From the NCBI GenBank assembly GCA_050250255.1, contig JBFWOZ010000036.1:1-29413 (forward strand): a stretch of DNA of 29,413 bases, in the 5' to 3' direction. The notes beneath the pieces were generated by a model that was not told the DNA's origin, did not search any database, and saw nothing but the letters and a program-made list of their open reading frames with translations. Below, piece after piece: positions 7,945-28,154 of the stretch (position 1 is the first letter of the stretch; each line of letters begins with the position of its first letter). This DNA is from Bdellovibrionales bacterium. GTDB lineage: Bacteria; Bdellovibrionota; Bdellovibrionia; Bdellovibrionales; DASUEL01. A program made the translations under genes and the position numbers.

Positions 7945-8460
7945 ATGATGACTCGTACTCAACAAAACAGTGTCTTTTTTACTATTTGCTGCACGCTTTT
8001 AGCATCTTGCGGAGATGGTCCAAAAAAAACCTCTGATCAGATCATCTACCAAAAACAAACCTACACTCACGCTGCTGATCAATGTCCAAACGTCGAAGGA
8101 GAGTACGTCAGATATGACGGCTCTGATCTCGAATATTTTGAAATAACGAAAACCGAAAAAGGTCTTAAGGTCATTTTTAATTCAGGACCAGACAGTTATG
8201 AAACAGAAATTGATGGCACTTCAAGAATTTTTACGGAGCCAGCTTTTTACACAGGCTACTGTATGAAAAACGAAGTGTTTATCCAGTACTACGACATCAA
8301 CAATAAAATCTATGCTCAATCACTCTATTTTCTGAATGAACAAAAATCCCTCATCACGCGACAAGAGAACTTTGATGAAGTGGTTGCTGAAAATGGATTT
8401 GACGAAGGCTCAAAAACTTGGATTAAAAGAGAAGTCGCCCCTCCGCAAACACAGAACTAA
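7945..8460 (+). CDS. Putative lipoprotein
   Basis: Lipobox LLAS|C, SD AAGGA upstream, beta-rich body. The 3' end overlaps the convergent barrel gene by 38 bp. Confidence 0.75.
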   Translation: MMTRTQQNSVFFTICCTLLASCGDGPKKTSDQIIYQKQTYTHAADQCPNVEGEYVRYDGSDLEYFEITKTEKGLKVIFNSGPDSYETEIDGTSRIFTEPAFYTGYCMKNEVFIQYYDINNKIYAQSLYFLNEQKSLITRQENFDEVVAENGFDEGSKTWIKREVAPPQTQN

Positions 8461-9733
8461 AACGTTCATAAAGACCAAAAGCCGTATCTCTAGGACCAAA
8501 ATAACGGTCATGTCCAACATCAAACTGGAGATGAGCGTTAAATCTATGCATTAATTTTGCGCGGAGAAGTGTTTCGTTCGTTGAAGGATAAGTGAGTACA
8601 AAAATCTCAGGCGTCCACGTGCTATCTTGGTCACCATATGACAGTCGTAAAGTAGATCCTATTCTTGTTTTTTCCTGAGAGCCCTGCAGATAGTTGTTAG
8701 CCGTTGCTATGGATTCGTTCGCATCTTGTTCCGTCGTACTTCTTCCGAGGACTTCTTGTTTGGTCACATATATTGGAAAATAACGACCCAGTACCTGGAG
8801 TTGCAGGCGAAGCTTTTCGAAAAAGGGTCTTTCGTAGCCAAGAACAGCGTCGTAGTAGGAGTTTGTGGTAATGGCCTTATCAAGCTTTGTAGATCGGTGT
8901 ATGTAAGCCGCCTCAAATCTTAAAACAGATTCATCCAATGTTACGGAGTAGTTTAGTCCTAAGGCCTTTATCCTGTCGTAACGTGGCGTGAGTACTAATA
9001 CTCCATTTTGAAATCCATCGCTTTCCAAGAGAGGGAGTCGCGCCCAACCGTCAAAAAGGATAAAGGAAAAGTCTTGATCTGCCTTCAAATAGCTCATCTT
9101 TAAAGCCATCTCAGAATTTTTTGTCTGAGTTCTAATGGTTTCTTCATCATGAACGCTTGTCGTGGATGGAATAGAATCAGGAGGTAATAAAAACGTCGAT
9201 GGCACAAATCCAAAGTTATAAACCATCGTAATGTTCCAAGGAGAGGCACCCTCTTCAAATCCGTAAGAAAGCAATAAACCATCGGCACCCGTTCTTAAGT
9301 TTTCTTCATCTGTTGAGAAGCGTGCACGACGTTTACCCGTCAAAAAATCCGTAGGATTAAAACCATCAGAGACTCCCCATGGAGTGATCAAACGGCCTGC
9401 GCGAAACTCAAGACCAGTCTTATAATACTGATAGTAACCTTCACGTACCTCTACGGTCGTATGCTCATTGTTTCTATCTGCTGTACGTCGACGATTTAAA
9501 AACTCACCCTCGACACGAAAGCTGTTCGCTTCACTCAACTTCGGATTTGCGTGGATTAAAAGCCCATTTTCTTGCTGCAATGCACGTGTCTCTGATGTCC
9601 ACTTTTCCTGAGTGGGTCCATATATATTAGAAAACAGTCGCCCACCCACACCTAAAGAAGAACCTTCGTCATCCGCGAGCGCTCCAGCTGGTAATACTAA
9701 AAAAAATATTAGAAATAGTCTCTGGATTTTCAA
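8423..9733 (-). CDS. Outer-membrane beta-barrel protein (DUF1302-like / LolA-like-associated porin)
   Basis: Probable TTG start at 9733 just after the upstream stop (MKIQRLFLIFFLVLPAGALA signal peptide). Motif VREGYYQY...EFRAGRLITPWGVSDGFNPTDFL and C-terminal beta-signal VFAEGRLLF. Confidence 0.8.
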   Translation of the reverse strand: MKIQRLFLIFFLVLPAGALADDEGSSLGVGGRLFSNIYGPTQEKWTSETRALQQENGLLIHANPKLSEANSFRVEGEFLNRRRTADRNNEHTTVEVREGYYQYYKTGLEFRAGRLITPWGVSDGFNPTDFLTGKRRARFSTDEENLRTGADGLLLSYGFEEGASPWNITMVYNFGFVPSTFLLPPDSIPSTTSVHDEETIRTQTKNSEMALKMSYLKADQDFSFILFDGWARLPLLESDGFQNGVLVLTPRYDRIKALGLNYSVTLDESVLRFEAAYIHRSTKLDKAITTNSYYDAVLGYERPFFEKLRLQLQVLGRYFPIYVTKQEVLGRSTTEQDANESIATANNYLQGSQEKTRIGSTLRLSYGDQDSTWTPEIFVLTYPSTNETLLRAKLMHRFNAHLQFDVGHDRYFGPRDTAFGLYERFSSVFAEGRLLF

Positions 9734-9734
9734 T

Positions 9735-10526
9735 TTACTTCCTGGAAATATTTTGTGGAGCGAAGAGTGCATCTGAGATACCTTGGTTCACTTTCACATT
9801 AGAAAATTCTATTTTGGTTTTTTTAGAATTTAAAAAGTTCTCAACCTCTAACCGATGTGCCATCCATTTTGAATTTTGACTATCCACTTCTTTGTTTTCG
9901 TAAGCCATGAGCTTCTTTAACTTTTGTCCCTCGAGATTAAAATATTCAACTTGGGAAACCATAAAGTTATCAGATCGAATCTGTTGGATTTGTTTGGAGT
10001 AGCCGAAGCGCTCTTTCACTTCAACGGTTTTGGGTGTGGATTCTACAACATAGCAAACGCCACCATCATGGCAGGTAGATTCCGGCAGGAGCTTATAGTC
10101 AAAACTGTTAAGATCTGGTGTGGATATGTCTGAATAGCTAAATTGGGAGCCCATGAAGCTTTGACTCTGTGCTTGGTTTTCAACTCGTCTTGTTTTTTTA
10201 AAAGCTGGTAAATAAAGTAGCACTTCTGATTTGCCATTTTCTTTTTCTAAAAATAATACGGCCTCATCGCGAATTTCTGCTGGTGATTGAAACCTTGTCA
10301 GAGTGTTAAAGTTTACTTTATTGGGCGCAAGCTTTCTCCACCATGTGAATTTTTTTACGTTTTCGCTTCCACCTTTATCAATATTCGTAAGCTTTGTATC
10401 CGCTTTCACGTCAGACAATTGCCTCGCCTGTTCATTTTTGGCCATCACACCTTTAGCTTCGAGAATAGGCAAAGCCGCTTCAGCTATTTGAGATGAAAAT
10501 ATGAGAATACAAATCAATTTATTCAT
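9735..10526 (-). CDS. Outer-membrane lipoprotein-sorting (LolA-like) periplasmic protein
   Basis: Signal peptide, then RFQSPAEIRD..L, LYLPAFKKTRR, SFMGSQFSYSD, EYFNLEGQKLK, all hallmark LolA-like motifs. Alternative start at 10538. Confidence 0.9.
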   Translation of the reverse strand: MNKLICILIFSSQIAEAALPILEAKGVMAKNEQARQLSDVKADTKLTNIDKGGSENVKKFTWWRKLAPNKVNFNTLTRFQSPAEIRDEAVLFLEKENGKSEVLLYLPAFKKTRRVENQAQSQSFMGSQFSYSDISTPDLNSFDYKLLPESTCHDGGVCYVVESTPKTVEVKERFGYSKQIQQIRSDNFMVSQVEYFNLEGQKLKKLMAYENKEVDSQNSKWMAHRLEVENFLNSKKTKIEFSNVKVNQGISDALFAPQNISRK

Positions 10527-12966
10527 AAGAAAGCCCATCCCTTACAGAAAGTTGAGTCGCCTGAAATGCAGGTACGAGTGTCGATATCACCGAAATTAAA
10601 ATTCCAATGGCGAATGTAATGGGTATGATTTCAATGGGAAAGTAGAAATCAATATTCCATCCTAAAATTTCAGACATAAGATAATTAACCCATAAGAAAC
10701 TACACAAAAACCCGGTCACAATTGCAAAAAAGACACCCAGAAAACCCTGGATTGCCGCTTCGTAAATGAAAACAGAAAATGTCTGCATCTTCGTTTGGCC
10801 TATAGCTCGCATCAATCCAATCTCTCGTGTCCTTTCCAAGATCGAAATAAACATCATGTTCATCATCGATAAGGCAGCACAAATGAGAGCGGCCAGTTCA
10901 ATGGCCTTTGTGTATTTAAAACTATTATTTATACCTTCTTTAAAGCCTTTTTTGACTTCAGAGTTCAAAACAACTTGTAGGTGAAATGCCTCACCTAGCT
11001 TTTGATCAATCAGTTGTCTTGTGGCAATCGCCTGACTGGAATCTTTCAGCTTAAGATAAAAGGCACTGACAAGATGGTCGTTCCAATATTTTTTGTAGAG
11101 ATCTCTAGGGAGATATAAAACACCTTCATTAGAAGCGAAATCCTTTACGCTTGCGAGAATGGATAGCTCAAGTGGTCCACCTGGAGTTTCGAGGGTGATG
11201 GATTCCCCTATTTTCTTTTGAAACCGAGATAAGAAGTTATTCGAGACTACCACTTGTCGCTCTGTCGATTGAAAGAGTCGCTCACCAATTCTGACAGCTT
11301 CCGACTCTGGTAAATCGAACATTTTATATTTTGACTCCACACCCGGATCATCAAAAGCTTTGATGGCCACCGTGCGATCAGAGTATTTAAAGTGCAAAAA
11401 TCGCATTGCAGTAGGTGCCGATGCTAGATTCTCTTTCACTTCGGGAATAGCAGCGAGATCCAGCTTTAATTCTTCATGAATCGGTCGAGCTTGGACCGAG
11501 AAGAGCGCTCCTGCCGAGGAAACAACAATATCGGCGCGTAATATTTTATCTAACCAGTTAAAGATAGAATTTTGAAAGCTCACGTTGATAATCGCAATGG
11601 TAATGACCAAACTTAAACTCAACTGCAAAGCAAAAATATTAGCTATGCTGCGACCAAAATTTCTTTGAATATTATCTATAGCGAGCCTGCCAACAATCGA
11701 ACGCCGCAGAAAAGAAAAACACGAAAGAATGGATCGCATGAGAGCACTCATATGCTGAGCCATCTTTGAAGAGCGCATGTTGACCTGGTTTTTAACGGCT
11801 TCAATAGGTTGAAGGCGACTTGCAGAGTAGGAGGGCCATAGCGCGGCCGCCGAGGAGACAATTGTTCCAACAAAAACCGCTAAAAGAAAGTCAGACGGCC
11901 GATATGTAATAACCGCGACAGGAACATTCATGAGCGACTGTGCCGACAATGCCTCGGTCACTTGTCCTACGAGCGATTTCGCCAAAATGAAGCCCAAAAA
12001 CGAACCTAGAGTTGAACCCACCAGTCCGATCAAGAATGATTCCGAAAGAAAAATGAATAGAATATTTTTTTCCGTCGCTCCGATGCTTCTCAAAATCCCA
12101 ATTTCTTTTCGCCTCTCAACGGTTGCGATATGTGTCGTGTTTGCGACTAATAAAAGTCCAATAATAAAAGCGAGAGACCCAAACAAGAGCAAAATGGTTT
12201 GATATACCGAAATCAATCTATCCGTATTTATGGATTGTGGCGCCTGTACTTGATAAGCCGGGCCCAATACCCCGATAAGTTTTTGCTGGATTTCTTCAAG
12301 CGAGTTTTTTTCTCTTAAAACGATATCAGCCCGATCAATATTGTCTTCGCGGGCAAACAACATGCGAGCCCCGTCTATGTCCATAATCGCGATAGATCCA
12401 TTGTAGGCTTTTGCCGCGCCCTCTGGTTCAATCAGACCACGAACCACAAGCTCCTTTACTCCTCTCGCCGTTTGGATTTTAACACGTGAGTCGAGCGAGA
12501 GTCCTAAACGCTGAGCGAGAATCGTGGAGAAAATAATACTGTTCGGCTGGTTTAAAAAAACCAGAGGGTCTTCCATAATCTCTTGATTTGAAACTTTATA
12601 GGTACGAACCGCAGACTCTCTTAGAAGATCTACTCCTAAGATCACAAGTGATTCGGATTTATTTCCAATAAGAAGCCGCGTATTTTCCTCAACTAGCGGA
12701 ACAATGTTTTTAATACCGCTTATCTCTTCGATAATACGTATTTTCTCTTCACTAAATCCCGTTTTACCCGCGCTGATCATCAGGTCTGCCTGTCCTGAAA
12801 TATTCATTACGTTTTCTTTGAAGGCCGAAAGAGTCGCTTTATTAATTAACAAGATCGAAGAGAATAGCCCCACCCCTATCGTGATACCCGCTATGAGCAA
12901 GAAGGAACGCAGAGGCTTGCTCAATATCTGTCTTAAATTAATGTAACGAATTAAGTTCAGCAACAT
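10519..12966 (-). CDS. ABC transporter permease, duplicated MacB/FtsX (LolC/E-like)
   Basis: 815 aa with two periplasmic domains and two FtsX motifs (ERRKEIGILRSIGAT; ERTREIGLMRAIGQT). Confidence 0.95.
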   Translation of the reverse strand: MLLNLIRYINLRQILSKPLRSFLLIAGITIGVGLFSSILLINKATLSAFKENVMNISGQADLMISAGKTGFSEEKIRIIEEISGIKNIVPLVEENTRLLIGNKSESLVILGVDLLRESAVRTYKVSNQEIMEDPLVFLNQPNSIIFSTILAQRLGLSLDSRVKIQTARGVKELVVRGLIEPEGAAKAYNGSIAIMDIDGARMLFAREDNIDRADIVLREKNSLEEIQQKLIGVLGPAYQVQAPQSINTDRLISVYQTILLLFGSLAFIIGLLLVANTTHIATVERRKEIGILRSIGATEKNILFIFLSESFLIGLVGSTLGSFLGFILAKSLVGQVTEALSAQSLMNVPVAVITYRPSDFLLAVFVGTIVSSAAALWPSYSASRLQPIEAVKNQVNMRSSKMAQHMSALMRSILSCFSFLRRSIVGRLAIDNIQRNFGRSIANIFALQLSLSLVITIAIINVSFQNSIFNWLDKILRADIVVSSAGALFSVQARPIHEELKLDLAAIPEVKENLASAPTAMRFLHFKYSDRTVAIKAFDDPGVESKYKMFDLPESEAVRIGERLFQSTERQVVVSNNFLSRFQKKIGESITLETPGGPLELSILASVKDFASNEGVLYLPRDLYKKYWNDHLVSAFYLKLKDSSQAIATRQLIDQKLGEAFHLQVVLNSEVKKGFKEGINNSFKYTKAIELAALICAALSMMNMMFISILERTREIGLMRAIGQTKMQTFSVFIYEAAIQGFLGVFFAIVTGFLCSFLWVNYLMSEILGWNIDFYFPIEIIPITFAIGILISVISTLVPAFQATQLSVRDGLSYE

Positions 12967-12973
12967 GCACCCA

Positions 12974-13657
12974 TCAATTTACTTTTTCGTCTGTTTCAAC
13001 AACACCATCTCTCAAATGTACAATTCGAGAACCAAAATTGGCGGCGTTTCTATCGTGAGTGACCATCAAAATGGCTTGATTCTGAGATTGAGATATTTCC
13101 TTTAATAAATTGAGAACTATGACCCCAGACTTCGAGTCCAAATTACCCGTTGGTTCATCAGCGAGAATCAGAAGTGGTTTGGTAATAAGAGCCCTTGCGA
13201 TCGCAACGCGCTGGAGCTCTCCCCCCGACATTTCGTGCGGCTTGTGGTAGGCACGTTTTTTAAGATCCATCATTTCTAAAAGTTTAAGCGCACGCCCTTC
13301 TACCTGGCTCAACGAGCGTCCGTCTAAAAGCAGCGGGAGACATATGTTTTCAACCGCATTCATGAGCGGCAAAAGATTAAAAAACTGGAATACAAAGCCC
13401 AGTTGACGTCGACGAAAAAGAGATAATTCTAAATCAGAAAGTTTGTGAATTTGTACATTATTAAATGTGACTTCTCCCGATGTTGGACGATCTAAACCGC
13501 CACAAATTTGCAAGAGAGAGCTTTTTCCAGAACCACTTGGTCCCATGATCGAGACGAATTCACCAGCACGGATATTTAAAGAAATGCCTTTAAGAGCAAT
13601 CACACCCTGCTCTTTTCCGTGGTTGTAGGATTTATGCAAACTCTGAATGTTTAGCAT
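12974..13657 (-). CDS. ABC transporter ATP-binding protein (LolD/MacB-type)
   Basis: Walker [18 protein letters not shown], signature MSGGELQR, Walker [20 protein letters not shown] 13657 follows SD AGGAG (track start GTG 13666). Confidence 0.96.
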
Positions 13658-13839
13658 TTTTTTCACTCCTAAACGAAGACTTCAAAATACGAATCGAGAT
13701 CATCGCTATATCAGAAATCGAGTAACGCTACTAACTAGTAGTCGTCGCTGTATTAATTTCACAAGCATTGACTTTAAATCTCAGTCCGTAGCATCTGTTG
13801 TCATTGCATAAACGCTAATTTCAACAAGGTGGGTTGTTC

Positions 13840-15033
13840 GTGAAACGTGTTGTGATCACAGGGCTAGGGATTACTTGCGGTATTGGAAACGATATCCACA
13901 CTTTCTCTGAAAACTTAGCGTGCATGAAATCTGGCATTCTGCCATTTAGTATTTTTGATTCCGGTAAATACACAGTTAAAATTGGCTCGACCGTTCACGG
14001 TTTAGAAAAAAAGCTTTCTCCTCGAATTTTAAATTTACCTCGTCCACTACAATTTTTATGGAACGCCACCCAGGATGCTCTGACTCAAAGTGGAATCATG
14101 GATTCCATCAACCCACAGAGAATCGGAACTTATGTTGCAGGTCCTGCGTGTTCTCTCTTAGAGGTTGAAAATTATTATCGTACTTACGTGAATCAAGGTT
14201 TAGCCGCAACACAACGACATGACTTAACTTATGCCAACTGGGATTCCGCGGTGAATGAAATCAGCCGTCAGTTTTCTATCATGGGTCCTCGTAATACAAT
14301 TTTAACCGCATGTTCTTCTTCTGGAGTTGCAATTGGTCTTGCTACAGATCTTATTCGCCTTGGTGAGGTAGATGCCATGATTGCCGCCGGCACTGACGGC
14401 TTTAGTGAATTCACATTTTCTGGTTTTCAATCTCTCAATAGCATCAGTCCCGTGCCTTGCCGACCATTTGACCAAGACCGCGCCGGTCTGTCTTTTGGGG
14501 AAGGCGCTGGAGTTCTTGTTTTAGAAGATTACGATCGTGCCGTAAAAAGAGGTGCGGTGATTTTAGCGGAGATTGCAGGTTACGGAGCCGTTGGAGAAGG
14601 TTACAACTTGACAGCTCCACATCCCGAGGCGATTGGCTTCATCAAAACCATGAATCGCGCAATGAAAATGGCTCAAGTGTGTCCCGATGAAATCAGCTAT
14701 ATCAACGCCCATGGCACAGCCACCCCTATTAACGATGCGGTAGAGGGCTATGCAATTCGAAAACTTTTTGGAGATCGAGATTTGCCCGTGAACTCTATTA
14801 AAAGTCTAGTGGGACATTGTATGGGAGCAGCTGGAGCCGTTGAAGCCGTCAACACGGTACTCACACTTATGCACAACATGATTCCTGGCACTCTCAACTG
14901 CACCACCCCAGATCAAAACATTCCGATCACCGTTGTGCAAAATACGATTGAAAGACAACTCAACTATGCTTTATGCAATAGCGCAGGCTTTGGTGGAAAT
15001 AACTCGAGCGTTTTGTTTAAGAGGTTTGCATGA
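13840..15033 (+). CDS. fabF: Beta-ketoacyl-ACP synthase (FabF-like KS of a type II PKS/FAS), catalytically intact
   Basis: RVVITGLG start. Cys-His-His triad: TACSS, INAHGTAT, KSLVGH. Also PFDQDRAGLSFGEGAG and GFGGNN. GTG 13840 follows SD AAGGTGG. Confidence 0.93.
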   Translation: MKRVVITGLGITCGIGNDIHTFSENLACMKSGILPFSIFDSGKYTVKIGSTVHGLEKKLSPRILNLPRPLQFLWNATQDALTQSGIMDSINPQRIGTYVAGPACSLLEVENYYRTYVNQGLAATQRHDLTYANWDSAVNEISRQFSIMGPRNTILTACSSSGVAIGLATDLIRLGEVDAMIAAGTDGFSEFTFSGFQSLNSISPVPCRPFDQDRAGLSFGEGAGVLVLEDYDRAVKRGAVILAEIAGYGAVGEGYNLTAPHPEAIGFIKTMNRAMKMAQVCPDEISYINAHGTATPINDAVEGYAIRKLFGDRDLPVNSIKSLVGHCMGAAGAVEAVNTVLTLMHNMIPGTLNCTTPDQNIPITVVQNTIERQLNYALCNSAGFGGNNSSVLFKRFA

Positions 15034-16121
15034 AAATAGGAATCGATGGCCTTGGATTTGTCAGTCCTTGGGGTGAAACATTTGAAAGTTTCTACACGAA
15101 CTATCACGCAAGACAGAGCGCCATCCGCCCCATCGACAGATTTGATACAACTCAGATCACGGCTAAATCTGCCGCTCTCGTGAGTGAGTTTGATGCAAAA
15201 AAATATATCGATCCTAAAAAAGTAAGAAAGTACGACACCTTTTCTCGCTTCGGAATTTCCACGGCAAAATTAGCTTTACAATCTTCTCAGGTTCAATTGA
15301 GCGCCGAACAGCGTGAAAACATGGGAATTGTACTGAGCTGTGAATCTCAAAATATGGTGACCGCTGAGTACTTAGATGTCCTCTATCGAGAAGGCGCAGA
15401 TCACGTTAGTCCAAAATTATTTTCCATTGCCTCTGCGAACTCCGCTAATTGCAGTATCGCTATGGAAATCGATGTTCATGGTCCAAGCGTGAATGTGTCC
15501 TCTCATTTTGCCTCTGGCTTTCTCTCCGTTTACACTGGATCTCAATTAATTCGCGCTGGCCAAACAGATCACTGCTTAGTGGGATCTATTGATTATCTTT
15601 CGCAGCCGGTTATGGAATGTTACACCCGAATGAACGCTTATAAGACGCAAGATTCTGAAAGAGGCTTCGTACCCGGAGAAGGTTCGGCAAGTCTTGTTCT
15701 TTCCAATCAAGAAGGGCAGTACGGTACAATACTGGGTCTCTCTTATATATGCTCTTCGCAAAAAAATTATTTATGGCCAACAGATTCCAAACTTCATGCT
15801 GAAGTCTTAAAGAAAGCCATTGGAGAACATAAAATTGATAAATTCCAGTCGACTTCAAATGGCGACAAGATCGTAAACCAATTAGATTCTGAAGCTTACG
15901 AACTCATTTTTAAAGACGAGGCTCAAAAGCCAGAAAAAGTTTTTATTAAAAGCTATCTTGGCGAATTTTCGTCCATCCCAATTTTTCAAGTGATCAGTGC
16001 TTGCTGCGAACCTCAAGGCACAAAAACACTTATTTCTGTCACAAGTGTTGGTGGAGTTCACGGAGCTCTCTTGGTGATTTCAAGCGGTTACAAAGGACTA
16101 CAGAATGCCGTTGGCTTCTGA
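15030..16121 (+). CDS. Inactive ketosynthase homologue (chain-length factor)
   Basis: KS fold (IRPIDRFD, VSPKLF...ANSA, GFVPGEGSA) but the catalytic Cys position reads SHFASG and both His are absent (STSNG; KSYLGE). ATGA-coupled to the KS. Confidence 0.85.
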   Translation: MKIGIDGLGFVSPWGETFESFYTNYHARQSAIRPIDRFDTTQITAKSAALVSEFDAKKYIDPKKVRKYDTFSRFGISTAKLALQSSQVQLSAEQRENMGIVLSCESQNMVTAEYLDVLYREGADHVSPKLFSIASANSANCSIAMEIDVHGPSVNVSSHFASGFLSVYTGSQLIRAGQTDHCLVGSIDYLSQPVMECYTRMNAYKTQDSERGFVPGEGSASLVLSNQEGQYGTILGLSYICSSQKNYLWPTDSKLHAEVLKKAIGEHKIDKFQSTSNGDKIVNQLDSEAYELIFKDEAQKPEKVFIKSYLGEFSSIPIFQVISACCEPQGTKTLISVTSVGGVHGALLVISSGYKGLQNAVGF

Positions 16122-16584
16122 GGATCTTTTTCAGAGCATTTCCTTTAAAGGTGGTACAAAAAAGTACTTTGTCGCCGATATTGGACGGCCTCGCTTTAAT
16201 GAAATCGATCACTACGGTGTCGTTTGGAATGGCCACTTCATTACTTATTTCGAAACCGCACGACACCAGCTTTGCCGATTTTGTGACTTCGACATGCAAA
16301 GGCTTTCCGACGCTGGTGTCTACTTACCCGTATCAAATATTGAAATAAAAATTAAAAAGCCCATTCTCCCTCGCGACGAAATTAAAGTCGCCGTGCGCGC
16401 TTCGCTCATCGAAGAGAACCGTTTTGAGTTTTTTCACTTACTCCTCGTCAATAACGAGGTTCGTGCAAGTGGGAGTGTTCAACACATTCCTATGGATAAG
16501 TCTACCGGTACCGTTGCCTATCAGTTGCCTGAGAATGTTGTAAAAATCATGAAACCTCTTTCCGAGTTATTCGCCAATGATTGA
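16105..16584 (+). CDS. Hotdog-fold acyl-CoA/acyl-ACP thioesterase (4HBT/YbgC family)
   Basis: PRFNEIDHYGVVWNGHFITYFETAR motif with the catalytic Asp. Confidence 0.9.
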   Translation: MPLASEDLFQSISFKGGTKKYFVADIGRPRFNEIDHYGVVWNGHFITYFETARHQLCRFCDFDMQRLSDAGVYLPVSNIEIKIKKPILPRDEIKVAVRASLIEENRFEFFHLLLVNNEVRASGSVQHIPMDKSTGTVAYQLPENVVKIMKPLSELFAND

Positions 16585-17299
16585 CGAAAAAAGACAAAAC
16601 CATTTCACGCCTATGCGTCAGACACTATACGACCAATTCAATCTTTGTCGTTATATGGTCCCGGCAACAGTTTCTGGCGAAATGGACGTGGCGAAGTTTG
16701 AAGCCATGAAAAGACATGGCAGCAGAACCGCCCACTATATTCAAGCGGTTTCCAAATGTTTAAAAAAACACCCTCGAGTGAATGCGGGATTTGTTCGCAA
16801 TTTTTGGACAAACTCATCACGAATCGTTCATTGGAATACGGTAGATGCAGCCGTGAGCGTAGACAAGAAGTTCGGTGATGATCGCTACCCTTTCGTTCAC
16901 GTCATTCGTAACTCAGACAAATTAACAGTTAAAGAAATCGATGATGAAATTCGTTACGTCACTGAGACAGCGGTAGAAAATATCCCCGCTTTTGCTAACT
17001 ACCTTCGTTTCATGAAGTTGCCTCATCTCGTTCGACGAATGATGATGCACAAAATGATCTGTGACTCTGATTTGATGAAAAGTCGTATTGGCACTTTTAG
17101 TTTTACGAACATTTCATTCTGGGGTTTTAAAACGGCTTCTCTTAACACTCCGAGGTTGCTTGTGGGAGTTGGAGCTCCTTCAGATGAAGGAAAACTTCCC
17201 ATCGGTTATTCTTTTAATCATGTCATCTGTGATGGAGCACAAATTGGAGAGTTTCACCGAGATGTGGTTCGGTTTTTTAGAAAATGTGAGTTCGAATAA
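16577..17299 (+). CDS. Stand-alone 2-oxoacid dehydrogenase E2-type (CAT-like) acyltransferase catalytic domain
   Basis: LKKHPRVNA, VIRNSDK, GTFSFTN and HxxxDG (FNHVICDGAQ). 240 aa with no lipoyl or subunit-binding domain. Confidence 0.85.
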   Translation: MIDEKRQNHFTPMRQTLYDQFNLCRYMVPATVSGEMDVAKFEAMKRHGSRTAHYIQAVSKCLKKHPRVNAGFVRNFWTNSSRIVHWNTVDAAVSVDKKFGDDRYPFVHVIRNSDKLTVKEIDDEIRYVTETAVENIPAFANYLRFMKLPHLVRRMMMHKMICDSDLMKSRIGTFSFTNISFWGFKTASLNTPRLLVGVGAPSDEGKLPIGYSFNHVICDGAQIGEFHRDVVRFFRKCEFE

Positions 17300-17551
17300 T
17301 TAACGAGGATAGTTGTTAATAAACGAAGTGAGTTCTGCAATGGAGGTAAAAGCTTTTGGGTTAATATCTTGATTTTTAATCTTGATTTTAAACTGCTTGT
17401 AAATTTGTGAAACGATTTCAAGCACATCAACGCTATCTAGCTCTAAACCCGCACCGACAATTTGCATATCATCTGGGATTTCTTCCACTGAGTATTCAAG
17501 GTCAAAAGCGTCGATCAAAAGTTGTTTTATTTGTGTCGTAGTAATGCTCAT
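17300..17551 (-). CDS. Acyl carrier protein
   Basis: 83 aa, acidic, GLELDSVDVLEI phosphopantetheine attachment motif (LDSxD type typical of type II PKS / aryl-polyene-like ACPs). Confidence 0.95.
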   Translation of the reverse strand: MSITTTQIKQLLIDAFDLEYSVEEIPDDMQIVGAGLELDSVDVLEIVSQIYKQFKIKIKNQDINPKAFTSIAELTSFINNYPR

Positions 17552-17586
17552 TTTTAAAGACTAAAAATATAAGTGATTTTGGTCAA
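17552..17586 (-). promoter_or_regulatory. Sigma70-type promoter predicting a leaderless ACP mRNA
   Basis: Minus strand reads TTGACC (17586-17581), 17 nt, TAGTCT (17563-17558), 6 nt, ATG (17551). No SD present. Confidence 0.6.
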
Positions 17587-17595
17587 GGATGTTTT

Positions 17596-18123
17596 GTGAT
17601 ACCAGCGCTTCTGCCAGCTAAAGAGTTAAGTACGATCCTCGAAGAGGCTCGACTACAGTCATGGATCTCTGGCCATGCAACTCAACGCACTGGCTCGCTT
17701 GAAGAGCTACGCACACAACTTGATCGACAGAAAACACAAACCAGTTCTCGTACACACAAAAAAGTGGAATCCACTTACTGGGGCATTCAGGTCGACGCTT
17801 CAAAAGACCAATGTATTGGTGTCGATTTGGAATACCTCTCTCAAACCTTTATCAAACGTGACTTACAGACGATGCAAGAGCTCCTTGAACTTCCTGAAGA
17901 GTCCAGTCATCAAGACATCCTCGTTGAATGGACAAGTCGTGAAGCGGCTTACAAAGCCCTTAGACAGAGTTCAGACGCGCCACTTGCGGAACTTGCACAG
18001 CTCAAAAGAGTTGATAAGGAGCCCACCTCTTTTGTTCTTGGACCACAAAATGTGTCCTGCCACGTGAAAACGGCCATTGAAAATAATTGGATTCTCTCGA
18101 TCGCAAAACTGGAGACATTATGA
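17596..18123 (+). CDS. Divergent 4'-phosphopantetheinyl transferase
   Basis: IGVDLE and EWTSREAAYKAL match the PPTase G(V/I)D(x)E and WxxKEAxxK motifs. SD AAGGA, GTG start. Confidence 0.8.
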   Translation: MIPALLPAKELSTILEEARLQSWISGHATQRTGSLEELRTQLDRQKTQTSSRTHKKVESTYWGIQVDASKDQCIGVDLEYLSQTFIKRDLQTMQELLELPEESSHQDILVEWTSREAAYKALRQSSDAPLAELAQLKRVDKEPTSFVLGPQNVSCHVKTAIENNWILSIAKLETL

Positions 18124-18857
18124 CCTTTTGGCAAAATCAAGTTGTTCTGGTAACAGGAGCTAGTCGAGGTATTGGTCGTGAATTAGCGATTCGTTTTTCT
18201 GCTTTAGGTGCAAAAGTCGCAATCAATTACGTGTCCAACCAGGCCCGCGCTGAAGAAGTGTTAGCACTTTGTAATGCAGAGAATACTCGTCTCTACCAAG
18301 CAGATGTGGGAAATGAAGACGATGTCACCAAAATGGTGGAGCAGATTGAAACAGATCTTGGTGAAGTCACCATTCTTGTTAATAATGCCGGGCAAACTCG
18401 CGATGGACTCCTCATGATGATGAGTGCAGAAAATTGGAAATCTGTTTTATCCACTCATCTTGATGGAGCTTTTTACTGTAGTCGCGCGGTGATGCGCGGA
18501 ATGGTTTCAAATAAGTTTGGCCGCGTGATCAACATCACTTCGGTCTCTGGAATTAAAGGTACAGCCGGGCAATGTAACTACTCTGCCGCAAAAGCAGGAC
18601 TCATTGGATTTACTAGAGCTCTTTCGAGAGAAATGGGACGAAAAAAAATCACCTGTAATGCCGTAGCTCTTGGTGTAATTGATACTGAGATGACTCAGGA
18701 TTTGAGTGCTGATGTTTTACAAGCCTACAAAGACTCGACTTCTCTTAAACGCTTTGGCCAAACGAGTGAGGTTGCAGATCTTGTTGAGTTTTTAGCAAGC
18801 GATAAATCGAACTACCTCACCGGACAAGTGATCACTCTCGATGGAGGGCTCGTATGA
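18120..18857 (+). CDS. fabG: 3-oxoacyl-ACP reductase
   Basis: VTGASRGIG, NNAGQTRD, catalytic Ser (TSVSG), YSAAK, GQVITLDGG. ATG 18120 overlaps the PPTase TGA. Confidence 0.95.
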   Translation: MTFWQNQVVLVTGASRGIGRELAIRFSALGAKVAINYVSNQARAEEVLALCNAENTRLYQADVGNEDDVTKMVEQIETDLGEVTILVNNAGQTRDGLLMMMSAENWKSVLSTHLDGAFYCSRAVMRGMVSNKFGRVINITSVSGIKGTAGQCNYSAAKAGLIGFTRALSREMGRKKITCNAVALGVIDTEMTQDLSADVLQAYKDSTSLKRFGQTSEVADLVEFLASDKSNYLTGQVITLDGGLV

Positions 18858-19321
18858 GTAACGCCGAAGACGCAACACTCATCCTTGCGGCCGTCCCTCA
18901 GAGATATCCCTTCTTAATGGTGGACCGAATTGTTTCTCACGAGTTTGGTAAAAAAGCTGTTTGTCGAAAGAACGTTACAAATGGTGAAGAAATTCTCGCC
19001 GGTCACTTCCCTGGAAATCCCATTTTTCCAGGTGTACTTATGGTGGAGCTTTCGCTTCAAACAACTCAAGTGATGTTGACAGATCTTCAATCTCTTAAGA
19101 ACAAAATAAAAGACACCCAGGCTCCTCAAGGTTATTTAGTTTCCATCGATAAATTTAAATTCCTAAAAGTGATTCGACCAGGAGACATTCTCGAAGCGAC
19201 ATCCGAATTTGATATGGACGCCATGGGAATGACACGTGCTAAAGTAAAAATCACTACCGATGCAGGAGAAGATGTGGCTCACGGTATTGTTACCGTCTCT
19301 AGCCCCACCACACCTGCATGA
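18854..19321 (+). CDS. fabZ: 3-hydroxyacyl-ACP dehydratase (FabZ family), copy 1
   Basis: PQRYPFLMVD and GHFPGNPIFPGVLMVE, with catalytic His and Glu. Confidence 0.92.
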   Translation: MSNAEDATLILAAVPQRYPFLMVDRIVSHEFGKKAVCRKNVTNGEEILAGHFPGNPIFPGVLMVELSLQTTQVMLTDLQSLKNKIKDTQAPQGYLVSIDKFKFLKVIRPGDILEATSEFDMDAMGMTRAKVKITTDAGEDVAHGIVTVSSPTTPA

Positions 19322-19710
19322 TTCCACAAATAGCTCACAGATACCCTTTGCTTCTTGTCGACCGCGTTCTTGAAAGCCGAACTGGCGAATATGTGAAGGC
19401 CACTAAAAATGTGAGCTTTAACGAAAAAGTTTTTTTAGGTCACTTTCCGAATCATCCGATCTATCCTGCGATTTATATTATTGAAGGGCTCTGTCAGTGC
19501 GCTCAAGTGATGCTCGGAGCCGAAAAAGCCGTCACCGCAAAACTTGAAAGTTTTAAGTTCACACGCCCCGTCTACCCAGGCGATCAAATCACTTATGAAG
19601 TGGAACTGGAATCTATGATGGGCGCATTTCAAATTGCAAAAGCTGTGGCCTCCGTGAACGGAAAAGCCGTTTCTAAAGGCACCATCGTTGGCTGCAAACT
19701 TTCGGAATAG
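19318..19710 (+). CDS. fabZ: 3-hydroxyacyl-ACP dehydratase (FabZ family), copy 2
   Basis: HRYPLLLVD and GHFPNHPIYPAIYIIE, with catalytic His and Glu. ATGA overlap with copy 1. Confidence 0.92.
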   Translation: MIPQIAHRYPLLLVDRVLESRTGEYVKATKNVSFNEKVFLGHFPNHPIYPAIYIIEGLCQCAQVMLGAEKAVTAKLESFKFTRPVYPGDQITYEVELESMMGAFQIAKAVASVNGKAVSKGTIVGCKLSE

Positions 19711-19715
19711 ACTAT

Positions 19716-19930
19716 TTATTGATTCTTTGCGAATTCACATATTCCAAATCGAGTACTATGAAGACGACTTTTGTTTTGAAAGAGCTCATCGTAACGAGTC
19801 GTGGATTCGCAAGCTCCCTTAACATCTCTCATTTCAATGCGAGCCTTACCTTGCAACCAAAGGGCTGAGTCGTGCTCTGGTGAAGAGTAGCGTTGATACC
19901 AACTTAATGCGCTTTGCCAAACAAGAACAC
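19716..19930 (-). pseudogene. Possible TPR-like gene remnant
   Basis: WQSALSWYQRY...SALWLQGKARIEMRDVKGACE resembles a TPR helix pair. No convincing start or SD, and the 5' part runs into the hsp20 promoter region. Confidence 0.35.
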
Positions 19931-19939
19931 ATTGCACCT

Positions 19940-19967
19940 CTTGACAGCCTTTAAAGGAAACACATGT
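19940..19967 (+). promoter_or_regulatory. Candidate heat-shock (sigma32-like) promoter of hsp20
   Basis: CTTGAC-N14-ACACATGT resembles CTTGAA-N13-15-CCCCATNT and lies about 45 nt upstream of the start codon. Confidence 0.4.
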
Positions 19968-20012
19968 TTTCTTTGTGTGGAATAACACAACTAAAACCTA
20001 AAGGAGGTTACA

Positions 20013-20528
20013 ATGAAAACATTAGTTCCATTTTGGGTGCCGAGTTTTTCTTCTGATCTCTGGCGTGATGTTGATCGCTTGTTTGATGGTTTTGCGACTC
20101 CATCCTTAGCCGACTATCCGCGAGCTTTTACGCCCGCAACAGAAGTAGAAGATAATGATAACCATTTTATGGTGAGTCTTGATCTTCCTGGTATGAAAAA
20201 AGAAGATATTAAAATCGATGTTGAAAACAACACTCTGATTGTTTCAGGTGAACGTAAGCGTGAGGAAAAAACGGATACCAAACGGTATCATCGTATAGAA
20301 AGATCTTTTGGGTCTTTTAAACGTAGCTTCACACTTGCTGATAATATCGATGTCGAGAAGATTGCTGCTCACCATGAGGACGGAGTGCTAAGAGTCTATA
20401 TCCCAAAAGCCGCGGCCTCACAGGCCCGCAAGGTTGAGATCCAATCTGGCAAAGACGGTTTTTTCGATAGACTGTTAGGCTCCAAAAAGAGTACGGATTT
20501 AAAAGACGTGAACGAAAAGGTCTCTTAA
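20013..20528 (+). CDS. Small heat-shock protein (Hsp20/alpha-crystallin)
   Basis: DLPGMKKEDI, VSGERK, ERSFGSFKRSFTL, AHHEDGVLRVYIPK, V-E-I motif. SD AGGAGG. Confidence 0.97.
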   Translation: MKTLVPFWVPSFSSDLWRDVDRLFDGFATPSLADYPRAFTPATEVEDNDNHFMVSLDLPGMKKEDIKIDVENNTLIVSGERKREEKTDTKRYHRIERSFGSFKRSFTLADNIDVEKIAAHHEDGVLRVYIPKAAASQARKVEIQSGKDGFFDRLLGSKKSTDLKDVNEKVS

Positions 20529-20534
20529 TCCCCT

Positions 20535-20560
20535 AAGGGCGGTTTCACACCGCCCTTTTT
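20535..20560 (+). terminator. Intrinsic terminator after hsp20
   Basis: AAGGGCGGT-ttcac-ACCGCCCTT followed by a T-run, between convergent genes. Confidence 0.85.
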
Positions 20561-21116
20561 ATTTTAATATTTCTTGAATAGCTTGGCGAAATTTTTCGCT
20601 ATCAGGCTTAGTCAATGAGCGAAATCGATTTACGAGTTGACCTTTTTTATTCACTAAGAATTTCTCAAAGTTCCAAGCCACTTCTCCACGGAACTCAGGT
20701 TTTGCCTGTTCAGTCAGATATTTGAACACAGGTTGTTTTTCTAAACCTACTACGGGGGACTTTTCAAACAGCGGAAATTTCACTCCAAAATTGATTTCAC
20801 AGAACTCAGAAATATCATTCTCAGATCCTGGCTCTTGAGAGCCAAAGTCATTGCACGGAAATCCTAAAATTTCTAAACCCTGTCCCTTATATTCCTCATA
20901 GATTTTTTGAAGATCTTTGTACTGAGGAGTGAAACCACATTTCGATGCTGTGTTTACGATGACAAGAGGTTTTCCTCGATATTGTTCCATCGTGGCCGGT
21001 TTCCCATGAAGTGTCTTTAATGGAATTTTATAAAGTTCCTCGGGACTCATGACTTCGCCCTTACTTTTAGGTTTTAAAAGTCCTGCAGCAATTTTAACGA
21101 GGTTGAATACACCCAT
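20559..21116 (-). CDS. Glutathione peroxidase family protein (Cys-type)
   Basis: VNTASKCGFTPQY, GFPCNDFGSQEPG, WNFEKFL. Confidence 0.96.
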   Translation of the reverse strand: MGVFNLVKIAAGLLKPKSKGEVMSPEELYKIPLKTLHGKPATMEQYRGKPLVIVNTASKCGFTPQYKDLQKIYEEYKGQGLEILGFPCNDFGSQEPGSENDISEFCEINFGVKFPLFEKSPVVGLEKQPVFKYLTEQAKPEFRGEVAWNFEKFLVNKKGQLVNRFRSLTKPDSEKFRQAIQEILK

Positions 21117-21829
21117 TACGCCACCTTAGATTTCTTTTGCGCTCGAAGATTCAGCATTTCAACCGCTAATGAGAAGAACATCGCAAAATAAATGTAACCC
21201 TTTTCGATATGTTTACCCAAGCCCTCCATAACCAACATCACGCCGATGAGAATAAGGAAAGACATCGCAAGCATTTTTACCGTTGGATGAGCCGCTACAA
21301 AATCACTGATTCTTTTTGCGAAGAGAAGCATCACGCACATAGAAAGAACTACCGCCGTGATCATGATACTGATTTTATCCACCATTCCGATGGCGGTAAT
21401 GACGGAATCGAGAGAGAAAATCAAATCAAGAAGTACGATCTGAATAAGCGCATTTTTCAAAGAATAAACTTTTACTACCTTTTCTGCATGAGAGTGACCT
21501 TCCACTTTTTCATGAATTTCGAGAGTCGACTTAGCGATCAAAAAGAGTCCCCCAAGAAGCAAGATCAAACTCCTCGCAGAGATGTCCTGATCCATGACGG
21601 TAAAGAGTGGAGTTGTAAGCTTCATCACCCAGCCTAAACTCATCAAAAGAAGGATACGCATCAACATTGCTAAAACAAGACCCAGACGTCTTGCGAAATC
21701 CCGATCTTTAGCGGGAAGTTTTTCAACGACAATCGCGAGAAAAACGATGTTATCGATCCCTAAAACAATTTCGAGACTCGTTAAGGTCAATAAAGCAATC
21801 AGGACTTGGGCGGTGAGATATTCTTCCAT
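21116..21829 (-). CDS. terC: TerC-family membrane protein
   Basis: LEIVLGIDN, IVLLDLIFSLDSVITA, KGYIYFAM. Stop overlaps the peroxidase start (TAATG). Confidence 0.95.
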   Translation of the reverse strand: MEEYLTAQVLIALLTLTSLEIVLGIDNIVFLAIVVEKLPAKDRDFARRLGLVLAMLMRILLLMSLGWVMKLTTPLFTVMDQDISARSLILLLGGLFLIAKSTLEIHEKVEGHSHAEKVVKVYSLKNALIQIVLLDLIFSLDSVITAIGMVDKISIMITAVVLSMCVMLLFAKRISDFVAAHPTVKMLAMSFLILIGVMLVMEGLGKHIEKGYIYFAMFFSLAVEMLNLRAQKKSKVA

Positions 21830-21976
21830 GGGAAAAATATCTAGTTCTGACCTGCGAATGTCCAGTCAATATCGTATGTGTGCGAAGCGTTAAGCCCCCC
21901 AGATCAGGAATCAATTTGCATTCACGCACTGTGAGTCTTCATAATAGATCTTTCAATATCCATAGGAGGATACATC

Positions 21977-22570
21977 ATGAAAAACTTCATCCCCGTTTTC
22001 TTATTTCTTTTAGCACTTCCCGCTTTCTCAATGACAAATTACAAAATCGATCCAAGCCATAGCGAAGTCGGCTTCAAAGTAAAACATCTTGTCGTGTCGA
22101 CCGTTCCAGGAAAATTCAAAGAGTTTGAAGGAAATTTTAAATTTGATGAAAAAACCGGAAAGGTAGAAGACGTTCAATTTAAAATCAAAGCCGCTTCTAT
22201 CGATACCAACGAGCCAAAGCGTGACGAACATTTAAGAAGCAAAGACTTCTTCGAAGTCGACAAGTACCCAACAATCGAATTCAAAAGCACAAAAGTGGAA
22301 ACAAGCGGAAAAAAACCAACCCGCGTTCACGGCGATCTCACCATGCATGGTGTGACAAAAAATGTGGCTTTAAAGCTCAAGTATAACGGCACAATCAAAG
22401 ATCCATGGGGTAATCAAAAACTTGGCTTCGAAGCGAACACAAAATTAAATCGTGAAGACTTCAACCTGAAATGGAATAAAGCTTTAGAAACTGGCGGCGT
22501 TGTTGTGGGTAAAGAAGTGGAAATCATTATCTTAGGTGAAGCCACTGCCGAAGCTGAAAAAGCAAAGTAA
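21977..22570 (+). CDS. yceI: YceI-family lipid/polyisoprenoid-binding periplasmic protein
   Basis: Signal peptide, YKIDPSHSEVGFKVKH, RDEHLRSKDFF, GDLTMHGVTK, DPWG. SD AGGAGG. Confidence 0.96.
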   Translation: MKNFIPVFLFLLALPAFSMTNYKIDPSHSEVGFKVKHLVVSTVPGKFKEFEGNFKFDEKTGKVEDVQFKIKAASIDTNEPKRDEHLRSKDFFEVDKYPTIEFKSTKVETSGKKPTRVHGDLTMHGVTKNVALKLKYNGTIKDPWGNQKLGFEANTKLNREDFNLKWNKALETGGVVVGKEVEIIILGEATAEAEKAK

Positions 22571-22602
22571 GCTCACAACTTAAACCGAGTAAGGATTAAA
22601 AA

Positions 22603-23799
22603 ATGTCCAACACCCAATTTGATTTATTTAATTTTTCTGAAGAACACAAAATGCTCCGTCAAACGGTTCGTGACTGGGTCAAAAACGAAGTCGAGCCTCA
22701 AGCGCATGAGCATGACAAAAAAGAAAAATTTAACATCGATCTCCTTCGGAAATTGGGTGAGTTGGGCCTACTTGGTCTTACAGTAAGTCCTGATTATGGC
22801 GGCTCAGGCATGGATGCTCTTGCCGCAACCATTGTTCACGAAGAACTCTCGGCCTCTGATCCAGGTTTTACTCTCGCCTACCTTGCACACTCTATGCTTT
22901 GTGTGAACAACATCCACATCAATGCGAATGAAGAACAGAAGAAGCGTTTTCTTCCAAAACTATGCACGGGTGAATGGGTGGGGGCTATGGCGATGTCGGA
23001 ACCCGATTATGGAACCGATGTTTTAGGAATGAAAACCACCGCGACAAAAAAAGGAAGCAACTACATTCTCAACGGTCGCAAGATGTGGATCACAAATGGC
23101 GCTCTAGACGATAAAAAAACTCCAGCAGATGTCGTTCTTGTTTACGCCCGCACCGGTGGGACCGATGAGAAACCACAGATTTCCACATTTGTTGTCGAGA
23201 AATCTCACAAAGGTTATTCCGTAGGTCAAAAAATCATGGATAAGCTCGGGATGCGAGCGTCCAACACGGCAGAACTTGTTTTTGAAAATTGTGAAATCCC
23301 CGAGACAAATCGCCTTGGTGACGAAGGACAATCGGTTCACCACATGATGAGAAATTTAGAGCTCGAGCGACTCACACTTGCGGCTATGAGCCTCGGCATT
23401 GCTCGGCGCTGTATTGATATTATGATTAAATATGCGAACGACAGAAAAGCTTTTGGCCACTCTTTAAATCGTTTCGGCCAAATCCAAGCTTACATTTCAA
23501 ACAGTTATTCTGACTATATGGCCGCACGTACTTATGTTTACGATGTCGCTAGAAAACTCAACCTCACAGCTGGTGGTCAACGGGTCGATTCCGATGGAAT
23601 CAAACTTGTTGCCGCTCCAATGGCAAAGCAAGTCGCTGATCGCGCCATTCAAGTTTTAGGTGGTTACGGTTATGTTGGCGAGTATGTTGTCGAAAGACTT
23701 TGGAGAGATGCGAAGCTGATTGAAATCGGCGGCGGGACGATCGAGGCACACCAGAAAAACATGTGCCGCGACCTCACACAGAATCCACCGAAGTGGTAA
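22603..23799 (+). CDS. ivd: Acyl-CoA dehydrogenase, probably isovaleryl-CoA dehydrogenase
   Basis: AMSEPDYGTD, LNGRKMWITNG, DKLGMRASNT, LELERL (IVD-type catalytic Glu position), LGGYGY, RDAKLIEIGGGT. Confidence 0.88.
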   Translation: MSNTQFDLFNFSEEHKMLRQTVRDWVKNEVEPQAHEHDKKEKFNIDLLRKLGELGLLGLTVSPDYGGSGMDALAATIVHEELSASDPGFTLAYLAHSMLCVNNIHINANEEQKKRFLPKLCTGEWVGAMAMSEPDYGTDVLGMKTTATKKGSNYILNGRKMWITNGALDDKKTPADVVLVYARTGGTDEKPQISTFVVEKSHKGYSVGQKIMDKLGMRASNTAELVFENCEIPETNRLGDEGQSVHHMMRNLELERLTLAAMSLGIARRCIDIMIKYANDRKAFGHSLNRFGQIQAYISNSYSDYMAARTYVYDVARKLNLTAGGQRVDSDGIKLVAAPMAKQVADRAIQVLGGYGYVGEYVVERLWRDAKLIEIGGGTIEAHQKNMCRDLTQNPPKW

Positions 23800-27851: not shown

Positions 27852-28154
27852 TCCAACCTCACCTGCTCCCATATAGATGGGAAGCTATTATTTCGTTCTC
27901 AGGTTCACTGCCCAAAAAGTAGTCAGGAAGCACTTTAGGGCATCGGCGAGTCTATAAAAACTCCCTCAATGCCTATTATTTGGCCTACAAACTACCGCTC
28001 AACAGCGAATAACTAGGGTTCGAGAGTGTTATTGCAAAATGAGAGCCTCATTTTTAATGATTTTTAGCTCGCATTAGTTCTTGTTTTGAATTCCATAAAA
28101 CTTCGTTGTATGGTCGCAAACCCTTGAATTATTAGGGATTTGTTAGGAGACGTT

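Follow-up and report, generated by a model that had tools for sequence, protein, structure and literature searches.

Ishigamide is made by a highly reducing (HR) type II polyketide synthase (PKS), Iga, which combines a ketosynthase (KS) plus a chain-length factor (CLF) with an acyl carrier protein (ACP), a ketoreductase (KR), and a dehydratase (DH), a logic that it has in common with the locus described here. Among related systems, the granadaene (cyl) clusters count the CylE acyltransferase and the CylF aminomethyltransferase among their core genes (PMC6985545, in excerpt), and the lipids of aryl polyene (APE) clusters have been proposed to use Lol-like export (PMC8253772, in excerpt). The anammox KS/CLF-like heterodimer containing amxFabF2, a self-priming KS structurally closest to Iga11, decarboxylates malonyl-ACP and yields acetoacetyl-ACP (bioRxiv 10.64898/2026.05.19.726425, in excerpt). 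Here we describe a PKS cluster on a 29,413-nucleotide stretch of DNA from a Bdellovibrionales bacterium (GenBank contig JBFWOZ010000036.1, positions 1 to 29,413; the window), which is contig C36 of genome G000 (3.09 Mb, 99% complete). Sequence comparison indicates that its eight-gene core, namely, KS, CLF, a hotdog thioesterase (TE), a stand-alone E2-type acyltransferase (AT), ACP, KR, and two FabZ-like DHs, is a conserved but rare unit of a handful of uncultured bacteria, because three further genomes also have it, each in an arrangement of its own. Our preferred reading, which we hold to be about evenly balanced between right and wrong, is that this intact and rare KS-CLF system builds a polyunsaturated, polyene-like acyl chain, that the AT esterifies the chain, and that an adjacent ABC/LolA-like/barrel operon ships it to the outer membrane.

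All 13 genes of the PKS cluster and the divergent exporter operon were confirmed at the spans given here and look intact, which bears out the set of KS, CLF, TE, AT, ACP, phosphopantetheinyl transferase (PPTase), FabG, and two FabZ genes named by an earlier, sequence-only reading of this DNA; the layout that it described also held, including the divergent operon, except that it passed over the placement of the ACP gene on the minus strand. The KS gene (13834..15033, plus strand) encodes a protein that appears to belong to a polyene-type clade, with an intact C160/H293/H328 triad, which was invariant in the KS alignment. It is followed on the same strand by the genes for the CLF-like KS partner (15030..16121), the TE (16105..16584), which belongs to the 4HBT/YbgC family (PF13279) and is ApeK-like (25% to Escherichia coli ApeK; E = 8e-11), and the AT (16577..17299), a CAT-fold enzyme with an HxxxDG motif and a helical insertion of about 27 residues that was assigned by PF00198, a fold search, and alignments. 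The ACP gene (17300..17551, minus strand; PF00550; 34% to ApeE) is inverted relative to the operon, abuts the AT stop, converges on the AT gene, and diverges from the PPTase gene (17596..18123, plus strand). The PPTase is itself divergent in sequence, scoring 20 bits against PF01648 (cut-off, 25), yet it keeps motif-like GVDLE and W..REA stretches and has a 33% orthologue in the carrier genome G076. Completing the cluster on the plus strand are the FabG-like KR (18087..18857), with TGxxxGIG and YxxxK kept, and the FabZ-like dehydratases DH1 (18854..19321) and DH2 (19318..19710), in both of which the FabZ His and Glu are intact, as they are in all four carrier genomes.

The possibility that the inverted ACP gene was an assembly artifact was rejected, because a public Logan contig, possibly from the source sample, covers positions 8684-20200 with zero differences, because the ACP-PPTase junction (17445-18024) is covered with no differences by a contig that the same study obtained from another sample, and because the ACP gene is likewise opposite in strand to KR-DH-DH in G076. 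Each cluster gene is single-copy in G000. Codon use of the PKS genes is host-like (KS, KR, and DH2 at the 95th to 100th percentile) and therefore gives no sign of recent arrival, and no tRNA or convincing repeats that might serve as mobile-element borders were found in the window. Promoter-like sites in the window fell below the number expected by chance (17 versus 22.7), and none of the sigma-70-like type was listed inside the 167-bp divergent intergenic region between the exporter and KS genes (13667..13833). No RNA data set was listed as containing the sequence.

The eight-gene core was present in 4/4 carriers, in four arrangements, the joins across split contigs being presumed. In G062 (L003; Silvanigrellaceae), the order is KS-CLF-TE-AT-ACP-KR-DH1, with DH2 on another contig end and no PPTase match. 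In G076 (L002 and L021; genome 78% complete), CLF-TE-AT lie on one strand and KS (minus) and the PPTase gene on the other, while a second contig carries an inverted ACP gene and KR-DH1-DH2. About 21 nucleotides, recognized by eye, are shared by L002:7427-7447 and L021:5516-5536, flanking the presumed G076 ACP position, and are perhaps a rearrangement scar. A DUF3419 (BtaA-like) gene (L002:2019-3269) is divergent from the G076 CLF gene; as a shared tailoring gene it was rejected, being found in neither G000 nor G062. In G667, KS-CLF-TE-AT, a START-like protein, and KR-DH1-DH2-ACP are spread over two contigs, with no PPTase seen there; the START-like protein (L118:317-994, on C197), encoded between AT and KR, has a signal-peptide-like N terminus and matches the START/polyketide-cyclase Pfam family weakly (E = 6e-4, below the cut-off).

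The AT is the marker gene of the cluster, and its family is tight and rare, with 10 proteins among 159 candidates; five clusters among 1.84 billion representatives matched at E <1e-76, the next lying at 2e-22. The AT was found in 1/61 genomes of relatives, in 1/131 genomes of the class of G062, and in 3/401 genomes of the phylum, one of these being a weak match without a PKS nearby, and the CLF was found in 2/384 genomes of the order. The AT match in G293 (E = 2e-20) had no PKS gene within 16 kb. None of the pattern matches in the metagenome scans (0/96 and 0/125) or in the viral scan (0/62) was related. The sequence-only reading had expected conserved synteny in relatives but no close characterized cluster, and both expectations stood: no near-identical characterized cluster appeared in PDB, plasmid, or literature searches.

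In the CLF, the catalytic Cys is replaced by Phe and both His residues are lost. Across the family, Phe occupies this position in 6/7 CLFs, with Cys in P0015, and the His pair is lost. A model of the KS-CLF heterodimer gave an ipSAE of 0.95 versus 0.00 for the best control, where the mark applied is reached by 116/157 solved complexes and 2/215 mismatched pairs; agreement of contacts between runs was at least 97%, and the pLDDT of the partner was at least 90. The high score may stem from resemblance to thiolase-fold dimers of solved structure. In a KS tree of 28 rows, the three family KSs formed a clade (support, 100/100) nested in a starred 10-member group (support, 100/98) with ApeO and the KS halves of cyl-like fusions, and five FabFs stood apart from this polyene-type group (98/96). 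The KS phylogeny suggested by the sequence-only reading thus places the KS with polyene-type KSs (CylI-like and ApeO) and away from FabF, in a tree drawn without Iga11 and amxFabF2. The best PDB match of the KS was a KS heterodimer chain, 9s5h_B (273 bits), whose residues fit Brocadia fulgida amxFabF2 numbering once shifted by 5, as judged from the positions checked and except for Ile112 and His333; from these residue numbers we infer that 9s5h is amxFabF2. A plasmid search with the KS matched 620 records, all at <60%, and the lowest E values among the 40 records listed (1e-73 to 2e-73) belonged to Bacillus cereus plasmid KSs, of which one record examined (L034) is a cyl-like operon. Among 17 comparison proteins outside the family, the window KS matched the KS half of L034 best (36%, 256 bits), and the window CLF matched the C-terminal half of the same protein best. 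A stand-alone KS with its triad, a CLF without one, a dedicated ACP, KR, and DHs, and no enoyl reductase (ER) in the cluster are the features of an HR type II PKS-like KS-CLF system, as the sequence-only reading had supposed.

By analogy with the described systems, a polyene is the likely product. The PPTase would activate the cluster ACP, and host FabD, which was seen in the genome, would load malonyl. The KS-CLF pair, for which binding was modeled, would prime by malonyl-ACP decarboxylation in the manner of the anammox FabF heterodimer, and the KR with the DH1/DH2 pair would reduce and dehydrate in each round, with conjugated double bonds left in the chain because the dedicated ACP would mostly escape FabI. 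Among DHs of APE clusters, ApeI:ApeP forms a heterodimer, and DH1 and DH2 might pair likewise. The AT would then move the chain from ACP onto a hydroxyl acceptor, replacing ApeD or CylE, the TE would help in release or editing, as proposed for ApeK, and a swappable MacB-type module would export the product. A more specific version, in which the cluster belongs to an undescribed type II PKS branch where a tetronate-type E2 has turned into an offloading enzyme and yields a new non-aryl polyene outer-membrane lipid exported via MacB/LolA-like/DUF1302 modules repeatedly recruited by predatory-type bacteria, appears doubtful.

Several observations weigh against the preferred reading, in its export step as well as in its chain chemistry, and the first set concerns the exporter. 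This operon lies entirely on the minus strand and encodes a LolD/MacB-type ABC ATPase (12974..13666; PF00005; TIGR02211 at 243 bits, below the cut-off of 308), a duplicated MacB/FtsX-type ABC permease of 815 amino acids (10519..12966; two FtsX and two MacB_PCD matches), a LolA-like periplasmic carrier (9735..10538; PF17131 at 150 bits versus a cut-off of 30, with a weak DUF1329 match), and a predicted DUF1302-like outer-membrane beta-barrel of 449 amino acids (8423..9772), which had no Pfam or NCBIfam match and which resembled DUF1302 clusters in ESM Atlas features (0.98) and TM score (0.87). Permease orthologues (E <=1e-60) were present in 8/384 genomes of the order and the CLF was present in 2/384, the two occurring together only in G000, so that the exporter has orthologues in 7/384 genomes that are without the CLF. 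Both G053 and G620 have the four-gene order, as does G001, a genome of the same family as G000, where it is divided between two contigs; no KS was found on the flanks read of these three modules, and those of G001 and G620 have NDP-sugar epimerases upstream. Conversely, G076 and G062 had no exporter on the cluster flanks read. LolA-like domain matches, moreover, occurred in 91/201 genomes of the order; in many genomes of the order this domain ends open frames of about 1,020 amino acids, probably MMPL-LolA-like fusions. These patterns fit a rival reading in which the PKS makes an unsaturated lipid or a small diffusible acid and the divergent transporter is an unrelated neighbor that carries something else, such as a glycolipid or lipoprotein, an explanation that we regard as rather unlikely.

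A link is supported by G667, where the genes divergent from KS over 217 bp encode an ABC ATPase (36% identity) and a MacB/FtsX permease (25% identity) that belong to a different subfamily. The permease runs off contig C207; the first 47 residues encoded on contig C223 weakly match a permease C terminus (E = 0.003) and are followed by a LolA-like gene (114 bits) and a 400-amino-acid protein that matches the window-barrel profile (E = 5e-8, the best of seven proteins tested). The G667 ABC operon is thus probably continued on C223 by a LolA-like gene and a barrel, although the C207-C223 join is presumptive because the contigs have no sequence overlap, which counts on the opposing side. In G053, about 0.9 kb separates the orthologous exporter module from a gene for an Sfp-type PPTase, and an unrelated KS-CLF cluster is directly followed by an ABC ATPase and a permease with a LolA-like C-terminal part. 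Several of the exporter-only genomes are incomplete or have their orthologues on short contigs, those of G670, G722, G730, and G781 saying little. An exporter therefore occupies the same divergent position in 2/4 carriers, with different origins, and since G667 has an ABC operon there, albeit a non-orthologous one, the link appears loose rather than absent. On balance, we somewhat favor the view that the exporter is a swappable, repeatedly recruited route that serves the PKS in G000. The claim of the sequence-only reading that the cluster had its own export route was too strong in view of the orthologues without CLF and of the carriers without exporter, although the G667 arrangement keeps a looser form of it alive.

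The second set of opposing observations concerns saturation of the chain. The absences listed by the sequence-only reading, ER, FabH, and FabD among them, hold for the cluster itself, but FabH, FabD, and FabI are present elsewhere in the genome, where housekeeping fatty acid synthesis (FAS) is separate, with FabH, FabD, FabG, ACP, and FabF on C40, FabZ on C53, and FabI on C7, the last above the NF005717 cut-off. In cispentacin biosynthesis, FabI reduces an ACP-bound intermediate in trans (PMC10698177, in excerpt); with FabI present in the host and able to act in this way, the chains made here may be partly saturated. The sequence-only reading had taken polyene formation as established for systems lacking an ER, which overstates the case, although a polyene remains likely. 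The PDB lead of the KS is also small (273 bits for 9s5h_B versus 260 for FabF), Iga11 (6kxd) reaches only 177 bits against it, and the 28-row tree left out Iga11, amxFabF2, other characterized HR-PKS KSs, and the G667 KS. Furthermore, a long polyene is not assured by KS similarity, because in vitro the anammox heterodimer showed no elongation past acetoacetyl-ACP and had a preference for a C8 probe (bioRxiv 10.64898/2026.05.19.726425, in excerpt).

A rival reading is an accessory FAS, in which FabI would complete reduction in trans and the product would be a defined medium-chain saturated, mono-unsaturated, or 3-hydroxy/3-acyloxy acyl unit rather than a polyene; the FabI of the genome, the earlier example in which FabI works on the ACP of a type II PKS-like system, and the C8 preference of the amxFabF heterodimer all fit, as do the findings that both DHs are closest to true FabZ and that the KS, which reaches no NCBIfam cut-off, has its top scores to FabF models, below their cut-offs. 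We nevertheless consider this improbable: the KS groups with polyene-type KSs and not with FabF, the presence of a dedicated CLF, ACP, PPTase, and KR suggests that the pathway is insulated from primary FAS, and the cyl and APE clusters, which have the same core, make polyenes according to the portions of their descriptions available. The separate housekeeping FAS of G000 also counts in favor of the preferred reading.

The AT would be the step at which this chain leaves the ACP. Its model (pLDDT, 83) matched E2 catalytic domains in a fold search (E = 2e-12), and by sequence the PDB gave a chance match only. Residues H215, D219, and T177 align with His375, Asp379, and Thr323 of E2o, and the position of E2o Asp374, before the catalytic His, is Asn, a change that costs about 90% of activity in E2o (PMC5986005, in excerpt). 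There were nine plasmid matches to the AT, the strongest being in an uncharacterized tetronate-type cassette on a Pseudalkalibacillus plasmid. The cassette E2 is 21% identical to the AT, and the two have in common the helical insertion, which is absent from the true E2 of the host. Three candidate roles were weighed: chain anchoring by transfer from ACP to a hydroxyl acceptor in place of ApeD or CylE, which falls a little short of an even chance and for which the cluster holds no acceptor-making gene, a further point on the opposing side; O-acetylation of the product, which is rather less probable; and starter loading, which seems unlikely. With this choice of roles, the chain transfer that the sequence-only reading had assigned to the acyltransferase was overstated. 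The E2 domain of QncL reportedly loads an ACP in quinocarcin biosynthesis. The last alternative to the preferred reading, in which the AT would load the ACP with an acyl group drawn either from CoA or from a host 2-oxoacid dehydrogenase by way of its lipoyl arm, replacing the missing ligase and FabH, and the TE alone would release a free polyenoic acid, draws on the transthioacylase activity of E2 catalytic domains (PMC5986005, in excerpt), on the lack of a ligase, FabH, and FabD in the cluster, and on the full-length lipoyl E2 of the host (C3), but is very improbable, because the AT has the insertion of the tetronate-cassette E2 and lacks the true E2 form, because characterized tetronate E2 enzymes are O-acetyltransferases (PMC5819245, in excerpt), because of the costly Asn, and because KS-CLF self-priming would remove the need for a starter loader.

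Other E2-type proteins were seen in passing. In G000, contig C20 encodes a second stand-alone E2-type acyltransferase of 280 amino acids with HxxxDG (L089:1323-2165) in an unrelated setting, followed by tandem paralogues of 759 and 797 amino acids (L089:2329-6976) that, by eye, have pilin-like N termini and that carry Cys/Gly-rich repeat tails. The distant AT relatives P0095 and P0094 include a fusion of an AurF-like diiron protein with an E2 and an 852-amino-acid protein with several E2-like stretches. Elsewhere in the window, an intact P4-like tyrosine integrase gene (3353-4576, minus strand) is surrounded by small open reading frames of no known family, and no link with the PKS was shown. 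After the cluster, positions 20013-23799 encode Hsp20, glutathione peroxidase, TerC, YceI, and acyl-CoA dehydrogenase, which are lipid or stress related; in the other carriers, these genes were not observed next to the cluster. Two long open reading frames, of 731 and 418 amino acids, on the minus strand at 24424-27872 had no family match above cut-off.

If the preferred reading is true, a new class of lipid is made by nine small genes, and E2-fold acyltransferases have a new job outside the tetronates. A pathway working as proposed would also give the MacB/LolA-like/DUF1302 modules, a common feature of the order, a cargo that can be tested; a single paper naming both DUF1302 and LolA was found in a literature search. 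Should the more specific, doubtful version above hold, the cluster would count as the smallest self-priming pathway to a polyene lipid, and the DUF1302 route would gain a defined lipid cargo. The KS, as a close and simpler relative of the anammox ladderane heterodimer, is useful for comparing chain initiation and length control.

Compared with known systems, the window cluster resembles cyl clusters in its KR, FabZ, ACP, hotdog TE, and ABC transporter, and no ER is listed in L034, which we labeled cyl after comparing its genes with those described in PMC4315905 and PMC6985545 (both in excerpt). It differs in lacking CylE (GNAT), CylF, a glycosyltransferase, and FabD, there being no GNAT or GCV_T match among the 36 window proteins, in having KS and CLF as separate genes where L034 has a fused KS-CLF, and in having two DHs, an E2-type AT, and a Gram-negative export route. 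A cyl-like cluster was also seen in G053, a Gram-negative of the order (C6; L084:4923-16583), with FabD, an aminomethyltransferase, a fused KS-CLF, TE, ACP, an ABC ATPase, a permease with a C-terminal part of LolA-like appearance, and a 411-amino-acid protein of no known family. With the APE cluster of E. coli CFT073 (L091), the window cluster has in common the KS-CLF, KR, a DH pair, and the ApeK-like TE and ApeE-like ACP described above, but it lacks an aryl-ACP ligase, ApeR (the second KS), a methyltransferase, ApeD, ApeJ, and an MMPL protein; no window protein had a BLAST match to ApeH, ApeD, ApeJ, ApeM, ApeL, ApeN, or ApeC, so the CLF is unmatched to ApeC, and the DHs are FabZ-like where those of APE clusters are ApeI/ApeP. 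An aryl-polyene-like cluster (C76; L085:7670-17503) was observed in G062, in the same genome as the present cluster.

Ladderane cluster I (amxFabF2/amxFabFmut) likewise pairs a KS with a triad-less partner, a dedicated ACP, and FabZ, but the window cluster has no cobalamin radical SAM enzyme or phytoene-dehydrogenase homologue and adds KR, TE, AT, and a second DH. The tetronate cassettes (Agg4/AbmA4/QmnD3) have a stand-alone E2 catalytic domain in common with it, Agg4 and AbmA4 not being themselves aligned, but it lacks a FabH-like enzyme, FkbH, glyceryl-ACP, and an alpha/beta-hydrolase eliminase; genome-wide, the FkbH model matched 0/3 carriers and also 0/14 controls. It differs from the ishigamide system in lacking nonribosomal peptide synthetase-type offloading genes and in the weaker KS match of Iga11. 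The cispentacin/coronafacate models stayed below their cut-offs (AmcF, 198.5/325 bits; AmcB, 44.3/80 bits; AmcE, 67.1/140 bits), and no cispentacin-type adenylating ligase (AmcH) was found in the window. The open-access literature, in the portions available, yielded no description of this gene set. On its gene content, the cluster is outside the APE, cyl, tetronate, ladderane, and cispentacin families, because a defining feature of each fails, and the sequence-only reading was right to keep it apart from the aryl polyene, flexirubin, and tetronate clusters. By analogy, its mode of action is likely that of the HR type II PKSs that make polyenes in the APE and granadaene systems, as a new mix of familiar parts.

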